Assembly (NCBI GenBank): GCA_016840425.1
Contig: JAEOSI010000147.1
Coordinates: 1 to 6,017, forward strand
Source of the DNA: Candidatus Wukongarchaeum yapensis
Lineage (GTDB): Archaea; Asgardarchaeota; Wukongarchaeia; Wukongarchaeales; Wukongarchaeaceae
Reading direction: 5' to 3'
Length of the DNA: 6,017 nucleotides
The notes beneath the pieces were generated by a model. That model was not told the origin of the DNA. It made no database searches and saw nothing but the letters and a program-made list of their open reading frames with translations. A program made the translations under genes and the position numbers. Of the stretch, positions 1 through 6,017 are shown piece after piece (position 1 is the first letter of the stretch; every line of letters begins with the position of its first letter).

Positions 1-246
1 TCCCTAAAAATCCTTAAAAAAGACCCTATAATAGAGGGGATCGAAGACGATTCCTACGTATATTTTGTCCACAGTTACTACCCAAATTCTGAAGAAAGAG
101 CTGTTGCAAAAACCTCTTATGGTGTCGATTTTCCTTCAATAGTCAGCAAAAACGAACAGATATTTGCCACCCAATTCCACCCGGAAAAAAGCGGTAAAAC
201 AGGGCTTAAAATACTAGAAAACTTCACAAAAATAATTAAAAGATGA
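1..246 (+). CDS. hisH: Imidazole glycerol phosphate synthase glutaminase subunit HisH, C-terminal part (5' truncated by window edge)
   Basis: Manual translation of frame 1 is open from base 1: SLKILKKDPIIEGIEDDSYVYFVHSYY...FATQFHPEKSGKTGLKILENFTKIIKR*. It has the HisH motifs YFVHSY and QFHPEKS (catalytic His-x-Glu). Stop TGA 244-246 overlaps the hisA ATG (ATGA). Confidence 0.96.
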   Translation, partial: SLKILKKDPIIEGIEDDSYVYFVHSYYPNSEERAVAKTSYGVDFPSIVSKNEQIFATQFHPEKSGKTGLKILENFTKIIKR

Positions 247-992
247 ACATAAAGAAGGTTTTTAAATTGTTTCTTGTTATTCCAAGCATCGACATAAGAA
301 AGGGAAAAAATGTAAGACTTATAAAAGGCTCCCCCAAAGCAGAAACCGTTTACGAAACCAGCCCCCTTGAAGCTGCTTACAACTGGCTTGAGAAAGGAGC
401 AAAAACCATCCACGTAATAGATTTAGATGCAGCTTTTGGTGAGGGTGAAAATGAAGAAATAATCAGGGAAATAATCACAAATATCGATGTAAAAGTCCAG
501 GTCGGTGGCGGCATCAGAACCCTTGAAAAAGCTTTTAGGCTCTTAGAAATGGGAGCAGAACGCGTTATTTTAGGAACATTGGCCTTTAAACAACCAGAAT
601 CCATAACAGAACTTGCAAAAGAAGCAGGATCCAGGCATGTAATGGTGGCAATAGATCACCTAAAAGGCGCGGTTGCTGTTGAAGGATGGAAAAAAGTGAC
701 CAAATTAGATGTACTAGAAGCAGCAAAGCTTTCAGTAGAAAAGGGTGCAAACTGGCTACTAGTCACCTCTATATTAAAGGACGGAACCCTTAGCGGTCCT
801 GAAGTTGGAAGTTTAAAACGTTTACGTGTAGAATTAAAAGAAGCAAAAATCATTGCTTCTGGCGGGATCAGCACCCTAAAAGATATTTTAGAAGTCAAGA
901 AGATAAGAATGGATGGCGTAGTTGTTGGAAAAGCTTTACATGAAGGAAAAATAAGTTTAGAAGAAGCGTTAAAGATAGAAAAGGAGGTATAA
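243..992 (+). CDS. hisA: ProFAR isomerase HisA
   Basis: Motifs IPSIDIRKGKNVRL, IHVIDLDAA, VQVGGGIRT, AERVILGT, VAID, LLVTSILKDGTLSGP, IIASGGI, GVVVGKALHEG. Lies between hisH and hisF. An alternative start is TTG at 267, preceded by AAGAAGGT. Confidence 0.96.
   Translation: MNIKKVFKLFLVIPSIDIRKGKNVRLIKGSPKAETVYETSPLEAAYNWLEKGAKTIHVIDLDAAFGEGENEEIIREIITNIDVKVQVGGGIRTLEKAFRLLEMGAERVILGTLAFKQPESITELAKEAGSRHVMVAIDHLKGAVAVEGWKKVTKLDVLEAAKLSVEKGANWLLVTSILKDGTLSGPEVGSLKRLRVELKEAKIIASGGISTLKDILEVKKIRMDGVVVGKALHEGKISLEEALKIEKEV
983..988 (+). promoter_or_regulatory. Shine-Dalgarno site for hisF
   Basis: GGAGGT in the last hisA codons, 10 nt before ATG 999. Confidence 0.7.
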
Positions 993-998
993 TGAAGC

Positions 999-1832
999 AT
1001 GTTAGCTAAGCGAATAATTCCGTGTCTTGATATGAAGGATGGACGCGTGGTTAAAGGTGTCAAGTTTGTTAATCTCAAGGATGCTGGAGATCCAGTAGAG
1101 CAAGCTCAATATTATAATTCTGAAGGCTCAGACGAGCTTGTATTTCTGGATATCACAGCAAGTAGTGATAAAAGGAAGATCTTAATAGATGTAGTAGAAC
1201 GTACAGCGGACGTTGTTTTCATCCCCTTCACAGTAGGCGGAGGCATTGGATCTATCCAAGATATGAGAGATGTGCTTTTAGCTGGTGCTGACAAAGTTTC
1301 TATAAACACAGCCGCAGTTAAAAACCCTGAAACAGTGAGGGAAGGTTCTAAAATTTTTGGTTCTCAATGCGTAGTAGTGGCAATAGACGCAAAAAGAGTC
1401 TACGTAGAAACTGATGACAATAAAAAGCAAAAAATAAAGGAGGAATCCGATAGGGTTATCGTGGAAACCGCTAAAGGAGCGTGTTGGTGGGAGGTTTATA
1501 CTCACGGTGGGAGAACCCCTACAGGCTTAGATGCAATCCTATGGGCTAAGCAAGTAGCAAGTCTTGGAGCTGGAGAAATACTTCTAACCTCTATGGATTG
1601 TGACGGTACAAAAAATGGCTACGACATAGAGTTAACAAGGGCGATAAGTGAAGCGGTAGAAGTTCCCGTGATAGCAAGTGGAGGCGCGGGAAAACCCGAA
1701 CACTTGTACGAAGCCCTTACCGAGGGAAAGGCTGATGCAGTCCTTGCTGCCTCTATATTCCACTATCGGGAATACACCATAAAAGAAGTTAAGAGATATT
1801 TAGCGGAAAGAGGCGTGTGCGTTAGAATATGA
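999..1832 (+). CDS. hisF: Imidazole glycerol phosphate synthase cyclase subunit HisF
   Basis: [11 protein letters not shown] (catalytic D11), [17 protein letters not shown] (catalytic D130), [38 protein letters not shown]. Has an extra ~25-aa loop after D130. Confidence 0.98.
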
Positions 1833-2551
1833 AAACCGGAGAAGAAAGAGGTAAAAGAGTTGAGGATATAATAGGACAAGTTGATTTCGAGAAAGGAGAC
1901 GGCCTCGTCCCAGTAATAAGCCAAGAAACTTCAACAGGTAAAATATTAATGCTCGCCTATGCAGATAAAGAAGCTTTAAAAAAAACCATCGAAACAGGAT
2001 ATGCCCACTATTTCTCAAGGTCTAGAAACAAGCTTTGGATGAAAGGTGAAACTTCAGGACACGTGCAAAAAGTCCTAGAAATAAACATTGATTGTGATAA
2101 CGACGCGATACTCTTAAAAGTAGAACAGGTTGGCGCCTGTTGCCACAAAGGCTATCCTACATGCTTTTACAAAGAGCTTCTAAGGAAGGGAGAAGTCCAA
2201 GTTAAAGAAGAAAGGTTTTTTGACCCTTCAAAAGTATACGCTCACTGTAAGGTCCTTGATGAAATACAAGATGTGATAAAACAACGTATTAAAGAAAAGC
2301 CCAAGGACTCATATGTTGTAAAAATTTTTGAGGAAGGGACGGAAAAAATAGCTAAAAAAATCTTAGAAGAAGCATCGGAACTAGCGGTAGCCCTATTAAA
2401 AGAGGAAAAAGAACCGGTTATATATGAAGCGGCAGACCTTATTTTCCACATAATACTTGGAACAATCACAAGAGACGTGAAAAACGAAGAAATCTATGAA
2501 GAACTGAAAAAAAGGAGAAAAAAAGGAGAAAAAAAGGAGAAAAAAAGCTGA
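1829..2551 (+). CDS. hisIE: Bifunctional phosphoribosyl-AMP cyclohydrolase / phosphoribosyl-ATP pyrophosphatase (HisI-HisE fusion)
   Basis: HisI motifs [21 protein letters not shown] and CHKGYPTCF in the N-half. HisE (MazG-like) motifs [12 protein letters not shown] and YEAADLIFH in the C-half. Single uninterrupted ORF. ATGA overlap with the hisF stop. Confidence 0.95.
2506..2547. repeat. Perfect 11-bp tandem repeat (GAAAAAAAGGA) x ~3.8
   Basis: A7 runs at 2507-2513, 2518-2524, 2529-2535 and 2540-2546, separated by GGAG. Confidence 0.95.
2506..2547 (-). terminator. Probable oligo-T terminator for the convergent 3147-2599 gene
   Basis: On the - strand this reads as four TTTTTTT tracts starting ~50 nt past the stop at 2599. 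Oligo-T tracts are established archaeal intrinsic terminators. Confidence 0.55.
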
Positions 2552-2598: not shown

Positions 2599-3147
2599 TT
2601 AAGTCTTCATTGCCCTCCTTATGCTACAGTTTTTCCAGTCTGCTTTACACAAACCGGTTAATCTTTGTTCTCCTAACGGGCCACCAGTAAGTTTACAAAT
2701 AGCCCCGCTAGCGTCTTCATAAAGGTCTGGGCAAGGCTCAACTTTAGGAGTAAGAAGCCCCAATCCTTCCGCTGAACCTGAACCAGAAGCCCCTGCTCCT
2801 GGAGGAGGTGGTGGCGGCGGCGCTCCTTTTTTTGGTTTACTTGGCGGTGCTACTGGAGCAGATGGTGGCGGAGTAGACGGAGGTCCCGGTGGACTAGATG
2901 GTGGCGGAGTAGACGGAGGTCCCGGTGGACTAGATGGTGGCGGAGTAGACGGAGGTCCCGGTGGCGGCGTGGTTGGTGCGGCTATCTTTTCCTCTTTTTG
3001 TTCTCCGGTTTTCCCAGAACTTCCTATAATATAGCCTAATGCTGCTCCTATACCAATCCCTAAAAAAAGCCATAATGGAGAATAACTATTATATAATAAA
3101 TCCTCTGTAAGATCTAAGACTATGTTTTCAAAGCTTAATCCAGCCAA
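2599..3147 (-). CDS. Hypothetical single-pass membrane protein with proline-rich repeat stalk and C-terminal four-cysteine domain
   Basis: 182-aa ORF with a TTG start and GAGGGT 7 nt upstream. TM at residues ~24-42 (PLWLFLGIGIGAALGYIIG). Residues 58-116 contain 34 Pro in 59 aa. C139-x11-C151-x15-C167-x6-C174. The repeat unit is a multiple of 3 and in frame. The ORF fills an otherwise empty gap. Confidence 0.85.
   Translation of the reverse strand: MAGLSFENIVLDLTEDLLYNSYSPLWLFLGIGIGAALGYIIGSSGKTGEQKEEKIAAPTTPPPGPPSTPPPSSPPGPPSTPPPSSPPGPPSTPPPSAPVAPPSKPKKGAPPPPPPPGAGASGSGSAEGLGLLTPKVEPCPDLYEDASGAICKLTGGPLGEQRLTGLCKADWKNCSIRRAMKT
2860..2964. repeat. Perfect 36-bp tandem repeat, 2.9 copies, encoding PPGPPSTPPPSS
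   Basis: Unit AGATGGTGGCGGAGTAGACGGAGGTCCCGGTGGACT starts at 2860, 2896 and 2932 (third copy 33 bp). No mismatches. Unit is 23/36 G+C in an AT-rich window. Confidence 0.98.
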
Positions 3148-3154
3148 ATTTATA

Positions 3155-3160
3155 ACCCTC
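3155..3160 (-). promoter_or_regulatory. Shine-Dalgarno-like site for the Pro-rich gene
   Basis: GAGGGT on the - strand, 7 nt before TTG 3147. Confidence 0.6.
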
Positions 3161-3204
3161 TTCTTAAACCAAATGGGTTCTAAACTCTTTCCGAACAGAG
3201 AAAC

Positions 3205-3228
3205 TATATTTTATTTAAGTTCTTCTCC
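3205..3228 (-). promoter_or_regulatory. Candidate archaeal BRE/TATA promoter for the Pro-rich gene
   Basis: - strand GGAGAAGAAC-TTAAATAAAATATA (purine-rich BRE-like stretch followed by an AT box), ~60 nt before the start. The region is AT-rich, so specificity is low. Confidence 0.35.
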
Positions 3229-3349
3229 TTATTAACTTCTACTTTTTCCTTTTCATCAGTTAATTTAGTTACTTAAAAGCCAAAACTGCTTTTATGTTGA
3301 ACCCATTAAATAAGAAATAGTTTCCATTATAAATAAATAATTTGGGGGG

Positions 3350-3385
3350 AAAAGACCAAAAAAATAAGGAATTAAAAAAAATTTT
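3350..3385 (-). terminator. Probable oligo-T terminator after the heliorhodopsin gene
   Basis: - strand reads AAAATTTTTTTTAATTCCTTATTTTTTTGGTCTTTT (T8 and T7 tracts), 30-60 nt after the stop at 3412. Confidence 0.55.
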
Positions 3386-3411
3386 ATTGGAGATATAGAT
3401 CAGGTATTTAA

Positions 3412-4188
3412 TTAGGCTCTACTAGGACCGCCTCTTGTTCCGCCGTATACTTGCCAAGCTAAGGCACTTTTTGCAATCAAGCTGAGAATGATGTACACCT
3501 TTTCTCCAAAGAGATAATCGTTCCATGGTCCCCATTTTTTATATTGTAAGTACATGTTTATTGCAAAGCTATTGTAAAGTAGTGCAAGAGTTATGTAGAT
3601 TACATAAACAAATCTTGGGATATCTCCTCCAGAAGTTTCTGAAAAGTAGAAGTATAAACCAATAACTAACCATGGTACGATTCCAGCTATACATCCAACT
3701 ATATATGATATCCATTTTGTGTCTTTTGTTGTTTGGTTATGTACCTCCATCACCATACCGCAAAGGCTCATTACTGCTGTTAAAGCAAATATCGCTATTA
3801 AACTTCCTACATCGTATATGCCCGATAGCATTGCGATTATGATGATCATTACTGATGCGCTGAAAGAGTATTCAATCCATCTTGCATAGTTTATTTTGTT
3901 CTTTAGATTCTTAACATACCAGTCATAGCGAACTGTAGCTACAAGAAAATGGTCAAGAGCAGCTAAAAATAAGAAAAGCGCGATCAAAGGACCAAGTTGG
4001 ATATCAAATAGAACTTTTGTTTCTTGGAATAATTTGCCAGATTCTTCCGTTAAATACGTCGCTTTAATAGGTACTGAAAAATCAACGCTAATAATTAATA
4101 TCAAAATACCCTGAAATAAATGAACAAAAGCTGTTGCAAGGTTGAATTTTTTTAAGTACCAGAATTTAGCTTCATCTGTTGCTGACAT
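3412..4188 (-). CDS. heR: Heliorhodopsin (HeR), 258 aa
   Basis: Seven hydrophobic segments with the HeR signatures FN...H23LFQ26, long A-B loop, H80, N100..R103W104xE106Y107SxS110 (counterion), M140..G144..E148, PW173, N206xFA, E229..Y232..LS236LIAK240SALAWQ (retinal Lys). As recalled, very similar to Thermoplasmatales TaHeR. ATG 4188 is preferred over the track's TTG 4212 because GGAGTGA lies 5 nt upstream of it. Confidence 0.96.
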   Translation of the reverse strand: MSATDEAKFWYLKKFNLATAFVHLFQGILILIISVDFSVPIKATYLTEESGKLFQETKVLFDIQLGPLIALFLFLAALDHFLVATVRYDWYVKNLKNKINYARWIEYSFSASVMIIIIAMLSGIYDVGSLIAIFALTAVMSLCGMVMEVHNQTTKDTKWISYIVGCIAGIVPWLVIGLYFYFSETSGGDIPRFVYVIYITLALLYNSFAINMYLQYKKWGPWNDYLFGEKVYIILSLIAKSALAWQVYGGTRGGPSRA

Positions 4189-4193
4189 TATTC

Positions 4194-4200
4194 TCACTCC
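4194..4200 (-). promoter_or_regulatory. Shine-Dalgarno site for heliorhodopsin
   Basis: GGAGTGA on the - strand, 5 nt before ATG 4188. Confidence 0.8.
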
Positions 4201-4248
4201 TAATTTCTTCAAACTTAGACTGAACGATTATTTGCCATCAAGAATTGA

Positions 4249-4445: not shown

Positions 4446-6017
4446 TTATTCAAGATATAGAGCAGGTTTTCCTGGTTTTGCTTGTTTTACTTTCCCCAAG
4501 GGATCTTCTTCTATTCTTTCTGCATCAGTTATCTCTATTTCCAGGCCAGTATCCTTACTTATATACATTTTAAGTTTTTGAAATGTTTCCATCTCCTTCT
4601 CCTTTTCAGCATATCTTGGCCTTTCTCTAATTATCTGAGAAACTATAGAAACAACTATTTTACCCTTTTTCCGCATTTCAGGATTTCCCATAAGCTTCTT
4701 GATTATTTCCTTCTGCTTCTTCCCCTCGCCTAAAGCAACAGTAACATCATCATAGATTTCATAAAGCCATGATGACGCCAATATAACCTTGGCAATCTTT
4801 GGCTTTGTCTCCTTCATAAGAGAAGCTATCTCTTTTATATCATCAATCGTTTGCCTAACAACCTGAACAGCCTTGAAAACCTGATCATCAACTAAATCCC
4901 GCCTCACTTTAGGCCAAGAAGCCTGACTAGCAAAACCCTCAACTCCCATAATCTCCCAAAGCTCCTCACACAAATGAGGTGTAAAAGGCGCCATCAAACG
5001 CACCCAACCAGACAAAACTTCCCTCATAACCCTCCTAACACCGGCAAAATCCGTTGACCTCTTCATCTTTAAATACTCAGAAACATCCTGATCCAAAAGA
5101 TACAAAGAGTGCTGTAAAGCGTCCCTCGTCTCACAAATCTCCAAAGACTTCGTAGCCTCATCCACATGCTTATAAAAAGCAGAAAACATCCACCTATCAA
5201 CAACATCAAAACCCTCATCCCCCTCCTTTTCCGATTCTCCTCCATTATCACCATAATATTCCCTAACATAATTATATAATCGCTCAAGCTTGCCCCTAAC
5301 AGACCTGACCAACTGCTCATTAAAATCAGCATCAGTTAAAAGACCAGCAGAAGCCATAAGGACAGCTCTTATCAAATCAGCACTATAAAGCTCAACAGCC
5401 TTCCTTATCGGTACAATGTTCCCCATAGATTTCGACATCTTCTCACCCCCCATCAAAACCGAACCATTAACCACAATACCTCTCACCCAATCTTCTCTCG
5501 AAAATATAGCCACATGATTAAAAACCATAAAACTCAAATGATTCGGCACAAGATCCCTGCCAGAATGACGGGCATCCAGAGGATACCAGTAAACAAACTC
5601 ATCCCGCATCTGCTTCAAAAGCTCAACAGACATCCCAGCCTTTCTGGCTACTCCCTCTAAATTACACTCACCAAGAAAAACATAATCAAAGACCTCGTCT
5701 GAAAAATTCTCCTCACCAACCAATCCCTCCTGCAAATATTTTGCAATCGTGTAAAAAGCCATGTATATCGTAGAATCGCTCAAAGATTCAATAATCCAAC
5801 TTGTATCAAAAGGCAAAGGCGTCCCAAGCCCAGACTTCCTAGCACAAGCCTTCTCCTTCAACCAATCAAAAACGTTCCTAAACTCCTGCCTCAAATCCTC
5901 GGGAAATATCCTCAGATCCTCAAGGCCTTCACTAGCCAAAATTTTCCACCCATGATCGCCATAATTTATAAACCACTGATCCTCAACAATCCTTACAACA
6001 CACTGGGTCCCGCACCT
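4446..6017 (-). CDS. leuS: Leucyl-tRNA synthetase, archaeal/eukaryotic type, C-terminal ~half (5' part outside window)
   Basis: The frame stays open past the track's TTG 5939 to the window edge (RCGTQCVVRIVEDQWFINYGDHGWK). Motifs WIIESLSDSTIYMAFYT, YWYPLD, SGRDLVPNHLSF, KMSKS (5427-5441), PFTPHLCEELW, and the archaeal C-terminus AKPGKPALYLE. Confidence 0.97.
   Translation of the reverse strand, partial: RCGTQCVVRIVEDQWFINYGDHGWKILASEGLEDLRIFPEDLRQEFRNVFDWLKEKACARKSGLGTPLPFDTSWIIESLSDSTIYMAFYTIAKYLQEGLVGEENFSDEVFDYVFLGECNLEGVARKAGMSVELLKQMRDEFVYWYPLDARHSGRDLVPNHLSFMVFNHVAIFSREDWVRGIVVNGSVLMGGEKMSKSMGNIVPIRKAVELYSADLIRAVLMASAGLLTDADFNEQLVRSVRGKLERLYNYVREYYGDNGGESEKEGDEGFDVVDRWMFSAFYKHVDEATKSLEICETRDALQHSLYLLDQDVSEYLKMKRSTDFAGVRRVMREVLSGWVRLMAPFTPHLCEELWEIMGVEGFASQASWPKVRRDLVDDQVFKAVQVVRQTIDDIKEIASLMKETKPKIAKVILASSWLYEIYDDVTVALGEGKKQKEIIKKLMGNPEMRKKGKIVVSIVSQIIRERPRYAEKEKEMETFQKLKMYISKDTGLEIEITDAERIEEDPLGKVKQAKPGKPALYLE

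Follow-up and report, generated by a model that had tools for sequence, protein, structure and literature searches.

A possible membrane tether with a proline-rich stalk and a four-cysteine head, encoded by an orphan gene of the Asgard archaeon Candidatus Wukongarchaeum yapensis

Proteins that hold a small docking domain away from a membrane on a proline-rich spacer are exemplified by TonB, the energy transducer of Gram-negative bacteria, and ZipA, the membrane tether of FtsZ, both of which combine an N-terminal single transmembrane (TM) anchor, a long Pro-rich spacer of variable length, and a small C-terminal docking head. These proteins provide the best functional analogy for the subject of this report, the product of a Pro-rich stalk gene in Candidatus Wukongarchaeum yapensis (Asgardarchaeota; assembly GCA_016840425.1, contig JAEOSI010000147.1), in which the 6,017-nt stretch analyzed, henceforth the window, is the whole contig. 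However, neither TonB nor ZipA has a sequence or Pfam relation to the stalk protein; the TonB_C domain is not matched in its head, there are no ExbB/ExbD partners beside a gene that stands alone, and the TonB spacer is periplasmic (N-in), whereas the stalk protein is predicted to be N-out with its stalk in the cytoplasm. Moreover, in contrast to the heads of TonB and ZipA, the head in this archaeon is a four-Cys domain without known relatives.

Other described systems resemble parts of this layout. The Pf3 coat protein, a 44-aa phage protein that has no homology with the stalk protein, shares its topogenic signals only, namely an N-tail that is short, acidic, and devoid of positive charges, ahead of a single TM helix with a basic C-terminal flank; such flanking charges are hallmarks of tails translocated without a signal peptide. 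Zinc-ribbon membrane proteins of the Asgard phylum and of other prokaryotes likewise possess a membrane anchor, a Pro-rich linker, and a four-Cys C-terminal module, but those from Asgard archaea contain 4-5 TM helices and a CxxC...CxxC pattern, as opposed to one TM helix and a C-x11-C-x15-C-x6-C pattern in the stalk protein, and the matches between them (E = 4e-5 to 0.04) are compositional and confined to the TM and Pro-rich parts. For instance, other Asgard genera encode, at L002 1039-1911(+), L003 1053-1937(+), L005 1360-2229(-), L008 1375-2265(-), and L006 898-1794(+), proteins of about 290 aa in which 4-5 TM helices are combined with a linker rich in Pro and, at the C-terminus, a zinc ribbon of the form CPHC...CNxC (or CPNC...CISC); judging from such sequences, the combination of anchor, Pro spacer, and four-Cys head is a recurrent layout in the phylum. 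Finally, Gly/Ala-flanked Pro runs and repeated GPPxxPPP units beside a membrane recall formin FH1 regions, Ena/VASP, and WASP, and the host genome encodes profilin and other actin-related proteins; unlike these systems, the stalk protein carries no FH2, WH2, EVH1, or EVH2, is genus-restricted, and has Pro units that vary in the manner of a spacer.

The open reading frame (ORF) at 2599-3147 translates to 182 aa plus a stop, as had been described from the sequence beforehand, and its frame is kept in six orthologues with 61-98% identity. All six orthologues, compared as DNA at six loci, use the same TTG start codon, to which locus L011 adds an ATG as codon 2. Within the ORF, indels always have a length divisible by three, as also seen in metagenome run X7 with an indel of 3 nt; those in the flanking intergenic DNA measure 1-2 nt. 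Pairwise ratios of nonsynonymous to synonymous divergence (dN/dS, Nei-Gojobori) amount to 0.19-0.36 for the whole gene and to 0.18-0.51 for the N-tail with the TM helix, 0.22-0.44 for the stalk, and 0.10-0.47 for the Cys domain, in the alignment of which 43 among 55 columns are invariant at a synonymous divergence of 0.2-0.4. Because the TTG start and the GAGGG motif ahead of it are conserved, indels are exclusively in frame, and dN/dS lies at 0.1-0.5 in every region, the ORF is a real gene and more than a chance reading frame.

Every element of the architecture proposed in the earlier note (TM helix, linker, stalk, spacer, and four-Cys domain) is present in the 182-aa translation (Table 1). 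The N-tail of the window protein includes 4 acidic residues and zero K/R, and within the family F6, N8, V10-L13, D16, L17, and Y19-P24 are invariant. The TM helix is the sole hydrophobic segment, with a mean Kyte-Doolittle value of 1.65-1.84 across all members (approximately 1.8 in the window protein), and the four glycines G30, G34, G38, and G42 are invariant across the family. Glycine zippers are known to drive helix-helix packing, for which reason the TM helix likely self-associates or packs against a TM partner. One relative, the 157-aa P0004 from a 5.7-kb contig, is without 27 residues (YIIGS…PPPGP), from the last part of the TM helix through the linker; either the allele is broken or the assembly went wrong at the repeat.

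The stalk reaches 57% Pro in its best 40-aa window and is the most Pro-rich among the 8589 stop-to-stop frames of the genome, in which no other real-looking gene has a P7 run. It is built in part from a perfect tandem repeat that lifts the local G+C to 0.49 and whose 12-aa unit occurs in 3 copies in the window, 2 in L020, and 1 in L013, with a Pro run of 7 or 9, although these strains differ elsewhere in the gene by just 7-9 nt; these copy numbers may be inexact, as short-read assemblies may collapse perfect repeats and Logan contigs break at the repeat. Other stalk indels occur in more distant members, and the Pro run after KPKKGA is 5-9 long in relatives, the 3-nt indel in run X7 falling at position 2813. 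Family members range from 160 to 186 aa, a difference that falls in the stalk, while the flanking N-tail, TM helix, and Cys domain are nearly invariant. Because its length varies between near-identical strains, the stalk appears to behave as a spacer. Three further Pro-rich frames of the genome, C135:1757-2515(-), C122:366-950(-), and C93:6871-7422(-), have no TM helix; in each of them, a Pro-rich middle with EPEPVS or PQPK repeats lies between a charged helical N-part and a helical C-part.

The Cys domain that follows has a mean column identity of 92%. Its Cys spacings of 11/15/6 include no CxxC knuckle and form no two-knuckle (CxxC or CxxxxC) zinc-ribbon pattern, and the head matches none of the zinc-ribbon families of Pfam; as read from the spacings, the pattern departs both from classical zinc ribbons and from known iron-sulfur (Fe-S) signatures, and it would also suit two local disulfide loops. 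AlphaFold2 models from six-sequence alignments reach a predicted local distance difference test score (pLDDT) of 49.7 at full length and 46.4 for the head alone, with no readable fold; their low-confidence features comprise an N-tail helix (residues 7-18), a TM helix (residues 25-42), and, within the head, three short strands.

The positive-inside and charge-difference rules are established predictors of membrane orientation. In 6/6 members, the first 15 residues after the TM helix carry 2-3 K/R, and the N-tail carries 0-1 K/R with 3-4 D/E. Because the resulting charge difference (C minus N) is +2 to +3 in every member, these rules predict an N-out/C-in orientation, and a cytoplasmic C-terminus is regarded as fairly probable; the same topology, put forward in the earlier note, agrees with the charge-difference rule throughout the family and stays a prediction. 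Since the N-terminus of all six members is without a positively charged n-region before the hydrophobic segment, the protein resembles neither a Sec signal peptide precursor nor a type II anchor.

The reading preferred here, tentatively and with a likelihood slightly short of even, is a tether on the cytoplasmic face of the membrane, composed of a glycine-zipper anchor, a polyproline-II spacer of variable length, and a four-Cys head that binds a metal or is redox-active and docks a partner. According to this proposal, the acidic N-tail would be translocated outward without a signal peptide in the manner of the Pf3 coat protein, the TM helix would pack with its own copies or with a partner helix through the invariant zipper and possibly oligomerize, and the remainder of the protein would reside in the cytoplasm. 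The Pro-rich segment would act mainly as a stiff polyproline-II spacer, free in length, of which some 60 residues could reach up to ~18 nm when fully extended. It would keep the head, which is probably metal-binding (Zn or Fe-S) or redox-sensitive, off the inner membrane face, and the head, perhaps together with the KPKKGA-polyPro motif, would dock a cytoplasmic partner. Zinc ribbons of the CxxC...CxxC type are cytoplasmic domains, and other Asgard genomes encode them at the C-terminus, behind a membrane anchor and a Pro-rich linker; by analogy, this layout would count for a cytoplasmic tether. If the tether is real, it would represent another lineage-specific membrane protein on a common prokaryotic plan, with a head family that has no detectable relatives.

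Several considerations weigh against the proposed tether. The K/R excess on which its orientation depends is a matter of 1-3 charges, and the linker also holds 1-3 acidic residues; the absence of a CxxC/CxC knuckle is unusual for a structural Zn site, two local disulfide loops would point to an extracellular location, and stalks rich in Ser/Thr/Pro are likewise characteristic of glycosylated linkers outside the cell. The AlphaFold2 head has no confident fold (pLDDT 30-54), for which reason folding of the head may depend on a metal or a partner, or may not occur. There is no known partner, the gene is not in an operon, and the comparative evidence is thin because the family is confined to one genus-level clade. 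Some of these points would favor the opposite orientation, in which an N-in/C-out extracellular lollipop raises a surface knob with disulfides C139-C151 and C167-C174 on a Ser/Thr/Pro stalk, possibly O-glycosylated, and serves as an adhesin, a receptor, or an envelope component. This reading is less probable than the tether but a serious rival, as PPGPPSTPPPSS stalk units whose copy number varies between strains are typical of surface-protein linkers, the x11 and x6 spacings fit local disulfide loops with the CxxC metal knuckle absent, the low-confidence model has a beta-hairpin between C139 and C151, and the head contains an invariant N173-C-S sequon. What counts against it is the N-flank, which is net -3 to -4 (0-1 K/R) and followed by positive charges after the TM helix in 6/6 members, the opposite of a signal anchor or signal peptide; in addition, no archaeal surface-protein domain is found in Pfam or NCBIfam, and extracellular disulfides would be less favored in the sediment, mangrove, and marsh habitats if these are anoxic, as is assumed. 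That the protein has no function at all, being the product of a chance ORF or of a decaying gene held open by the GC-rich repeat, is barely conceivable. Its TTG start, the lack of a known domain, the low AlphaFold2 confidence, and the absence of clear RNA evidence would be in keeping with such a product; no RNA data set was listed as carrying the locus, and in metatranscriptome X25, where contigs cover hisA, hisF/hisIE, and the leucyl-tRNA synthetase (LeuRS) gene of this organism, a small share of the gene's words is present, with one 110-nt contig touching the last 29 nt of the ORF only and some depth on the repeat, by which transcription of the gene is not shown. Nevertheless, a non-functional product is refuted, as far as sequence evidence reaches, by dN/dS well under 1 in all three regions with in-frame indels only, by the 43 invariant columns of the 55-column C-terminal alignment despite the synonymous divergence, and by the conserved start and Shine-Dalgarno-like motif.

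The remaining alternatives assign the protein to a specific partner. The earlier note had likened it to eukaryotic membrane adaptors or actin-nucleation scaffolds, a likeness that proves to be one of composition only: at E up to 10, neither the full-length protein nor any of its parts matches FH2, WH2, EVH1/WH1, or EVH2 in Pfam, nor is there any other actin or profilin module, the genome has no SH3, WW, WH1, or GYF reader domain, the stalk varies in length between near-identical strains as a spacer would, and a TM helix with a Pro spacer and a small Cys head is an ordinary prokaryotic layout that is seen, with zinc ribbons, in other Asgard genomes. A narrower version, in which the cytoplasmic KPKKGA-P7 motif (the Gly/Ala-flanked tract GAPPPPPPPG at residues 108-117) and the PPGPPS units bind profilin, so that a membrane-anchored recruiter concentrates profilin-actin at the inner membrane face with its glycine-zipper helix clustering several stalks, is improbable. 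It would draw on the profilin that the genome encodes above the Pfam cut-off, on the stalk being the genome's most Pro-rich frame and the only real-looking P7 gene with KPKKGA-polyPro as its one invariant motif, and on the finding that no other known reader of Pro motifs (SH3_1, WW, WH1, or GYF) was found in searches of the genome; moreover, in vitro binding of a VASP polyproline peptide has been reported for a Heimdallarchaeota profilin (PMC8410842). Yet this binding is weak, with a dissociation constant (Kd) of 0.3-3.3 mM (PMC8410842), and the stalk protein has neither WH2 nor FH2; profilin is phylum-wide (11/13 genomes), whereas the stalk protein occurs in one genus-level clade, its repeat units vary freely in number, and its topology is only predicted. 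Complex prediction with the profilin of a sister genome and stalk residues 86-122 gives a score of 0.02 against a mark of 0.32, which is uninformative either way. Were the recruiter real, it would correspond to a minimal FH1/VASP proline region that arose independently in a single archaeal lineage, an equally improbable case; a polyproline run that is a true physiological profilin ligand would be of greater importance, as the natural ligands of Asgard profilins are unknown (PMC8410842). As it stands, the outcome is a clean negative, in which a eukaryote-looking Asgard proline scaffold appears as a young genus-restricted orphan with a spacer-like stalk rather than an ancestral eukaryotic signature protein. 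Still less credible is the idea that the protein serves the heliorhodopsin of the upstream gene as an accessory or transducer subunit, in contact with it through the glycine-zipper helix. The stalk gene lies 264 nt downstream of the heliorhodopsin gene (PF18761) on the same strand, an order that is kept in the window, L009, L010, L013, and L020, with a heliorhodopsin 3' end in L011; however, these loci are close kin, for which reason the shared order is best explained by inheritance, the two genes are set apart by a T-rich tract and by separate TATA-like boxes, and none of 20 loci of related bacterial heliorhodopsins has a Pro-rich ORF nearby. The link is contradicted because L012 keeps the stalk gene intact with no heliorhodopsin gene between it and LeuRS, its LeuRS stop abutting the same conserved upstream region.

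The profilin gene of the genome is itself split into C175:3-293(-) and C200:2-142(+), contig ends that overlap by 47 identical residues, and a full-length profilin of 119 aa with 90% identity is encoded in a sister genome (L015:1432-1791, -).

Relatives of the stalk protein are few. A search of 5.8 billion protein clusters returned six true relatives with 61-98% identity, the remaining matches being Pro-rich noise, and JGI metagenomes added three more loci, which brings the near relatives to about nine; all family loci share the order LeuRS, (heliorhodopsin), Pro-rich gene, and convergent his operon. When 1.84 billion representatives were searched exhaustively with an HMMER profile of the Cys domain, only the family's own representative was found, and a search with the N-terminal module among proteins of near and longer length found only the family and no fused forms. 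No relative was found in a pattern scan of 185,579 species genomes, from which the window's own genome may be missing; 60 relatives in the phylum gave compositional matches only (TM and Pro-rich parts; E = 4e-5 to 1), and no paralogue was detected when the genome itself was searched by profile and by pattern. Nor was the gene found in G001, a genome of the same genus, which is uninformative, as the LeuRS contig ends inside LeuRS and hisIE is unassembled; in the same-order genome G002 a different gene follows LeuRS. Sequence searches of Pfam, NCBIfam, and PDB with the whole protein and its parts at E up to 10 returned no family, and feature searches of the ESM Atlas with the head and the whole protein gave no usable match. 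The sole PDB match, to a TRAP transporter solute-binding protein (E = 0.76), aligns none of the Cys and is taken as chance. The earlier statement that the family is unrecognized is upheld by the lack of any Pfam, NCBIfam, or PDB match and of any relative outside one genus-level clade; likewise, the comparison it had called for with characterized families yielded none, and conservation is present in six orthologues under dN/dS of 0.19-0.36. On this distribution, the gene is an orphan restricted to one genus-level clade.

The 264-nt region upstream of the gene (3148-3411, -) shows a Jukes-Cantor divergence of 0.12-0.22, compared with a synonymous divergence (dS) of 0.42-0.60 in the gene for the same strain pairs, and diverges 2.5-5x more slowly than the synonymous sites of the ORF. 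Because the region has no Rfam match and no covarying pairs, its conservation looks like regulatory constraint and not structured RNA. Scans for sigma-70 promoters and terminators gave hits at chance level only. An upstream ORF of 11 codons at approximately 3292-3327 was rejected as a candidate, for it is not conserved (in L010 the ATG is directly followed by TAA).

Table 1. Positions in the window of the stalk gene, its parts and upstream elements, and its neighbors
Feature	Position	Strand	Remarks
End of hisH, then hisA, hisF, hisIE	1-2551	+	his operon
Pro-rich stalk gene (182 codons plus TAA stop at 2599-2601; TTG start at 3145-3147)	2599-3147	-	
Residues 131-182, C-terminal domain; C139, C151, C167, C174 and W171 invariant	2602-2757	-	C-x11-C-x15-C-x6-C
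Residues 117-130, Gly/Ser/Ala spacer	2758-2799	-	
Residues 58-116, Pro-rich stalk, variable length	2800-2976	-	
Residues 104-116, KPKKGA then P7	2800-2838	-	Sole invariant motif within stalk; K104, P105, K106, K107, G108 invariant
Perfect tandem repeat, 36 bp x 2.9, 100% identity (PPGPPSTPPPSS)	2860-2964	-	
Residues 44-57, Lys/Glu linker, positive charges after TM	2977-3018	-	3 Lys and 3 Glu in window protein
Residues 25-43, single TM helix (LWLFLGIGIGAALGYIIGS), glycine zipper G30xxxG34xxxG38xxxG42	3019-3075	-	
Residues 1-24, acidic N-tail (GLSFENIVLDLTEDLLYNSYSP)	3076-3147	-	Predicted helix 7-18; probably extracellular
GAGGG, Shine-Dalgarno-like motif, 8 nt before TTG	3156-3160	-	Kept in 5/6 orthologues; GAGGT in L010
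TTAAATAAAATATAG, TATA-like box ~60 nt before start, likeliest promoter	3204-3218	-	Near-invariant in 6 loci; putative promoter role
AAATTATTTATTTATAATGG, second TATA-like block, invariant	3324-3343	-	Within conserved upstream region
Heliorhodopsin gene	3412-4212	-	PF18761, E = 4e-96
LeuRS, 3' part	4446-6017	-	

The window belongs to a 2.16-Mb metagenome-assembled genome with a completeness of 92% and a G+C content of 38%, and the DNA of the locus is present in marine sediment, seawater, mangrove, marsh, and other metagenomes (12 studies). The stalk gene is solitary between the LeuRS and heliorhodopsin genes and the his operon, and the heliorhodopsin gene lies 264 nt upstream of it on the same strand. 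Three features mark it as a stand-alone unit, namely the T-rich tract behind the heliorhodopsin stop, a conserved upstream region of its own that contains TATA-like boxes, and its convergence on hisIE. As a presence/absence cassette, the heliorhodopsin gene is missing at the L012 1900-2170 junction, and it looks like a recent acquisition beside an older resident gene. Among the 185,579 species genomes, the nearest heliorhodopsins are bacterial, from Saccharibacteria/Patescibacteria and Chloroflexota (Dehalococcoidia/Chloroflexia) with 46-58% identity, which suggests a horizontal acquisition by this Asgard lineage. A gene for 387 aa with no Pfam match (L012 3534-4697, -) is inserted between hisIE and hisF in an otherwise conserved his operon. 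In the window, the Lys-rich C-terminal tail of HisIE (2506-2547, +) is encoded by a perfect tandem repeat of 11 bp x 3.8, and the tail is shorter in the relative L022.

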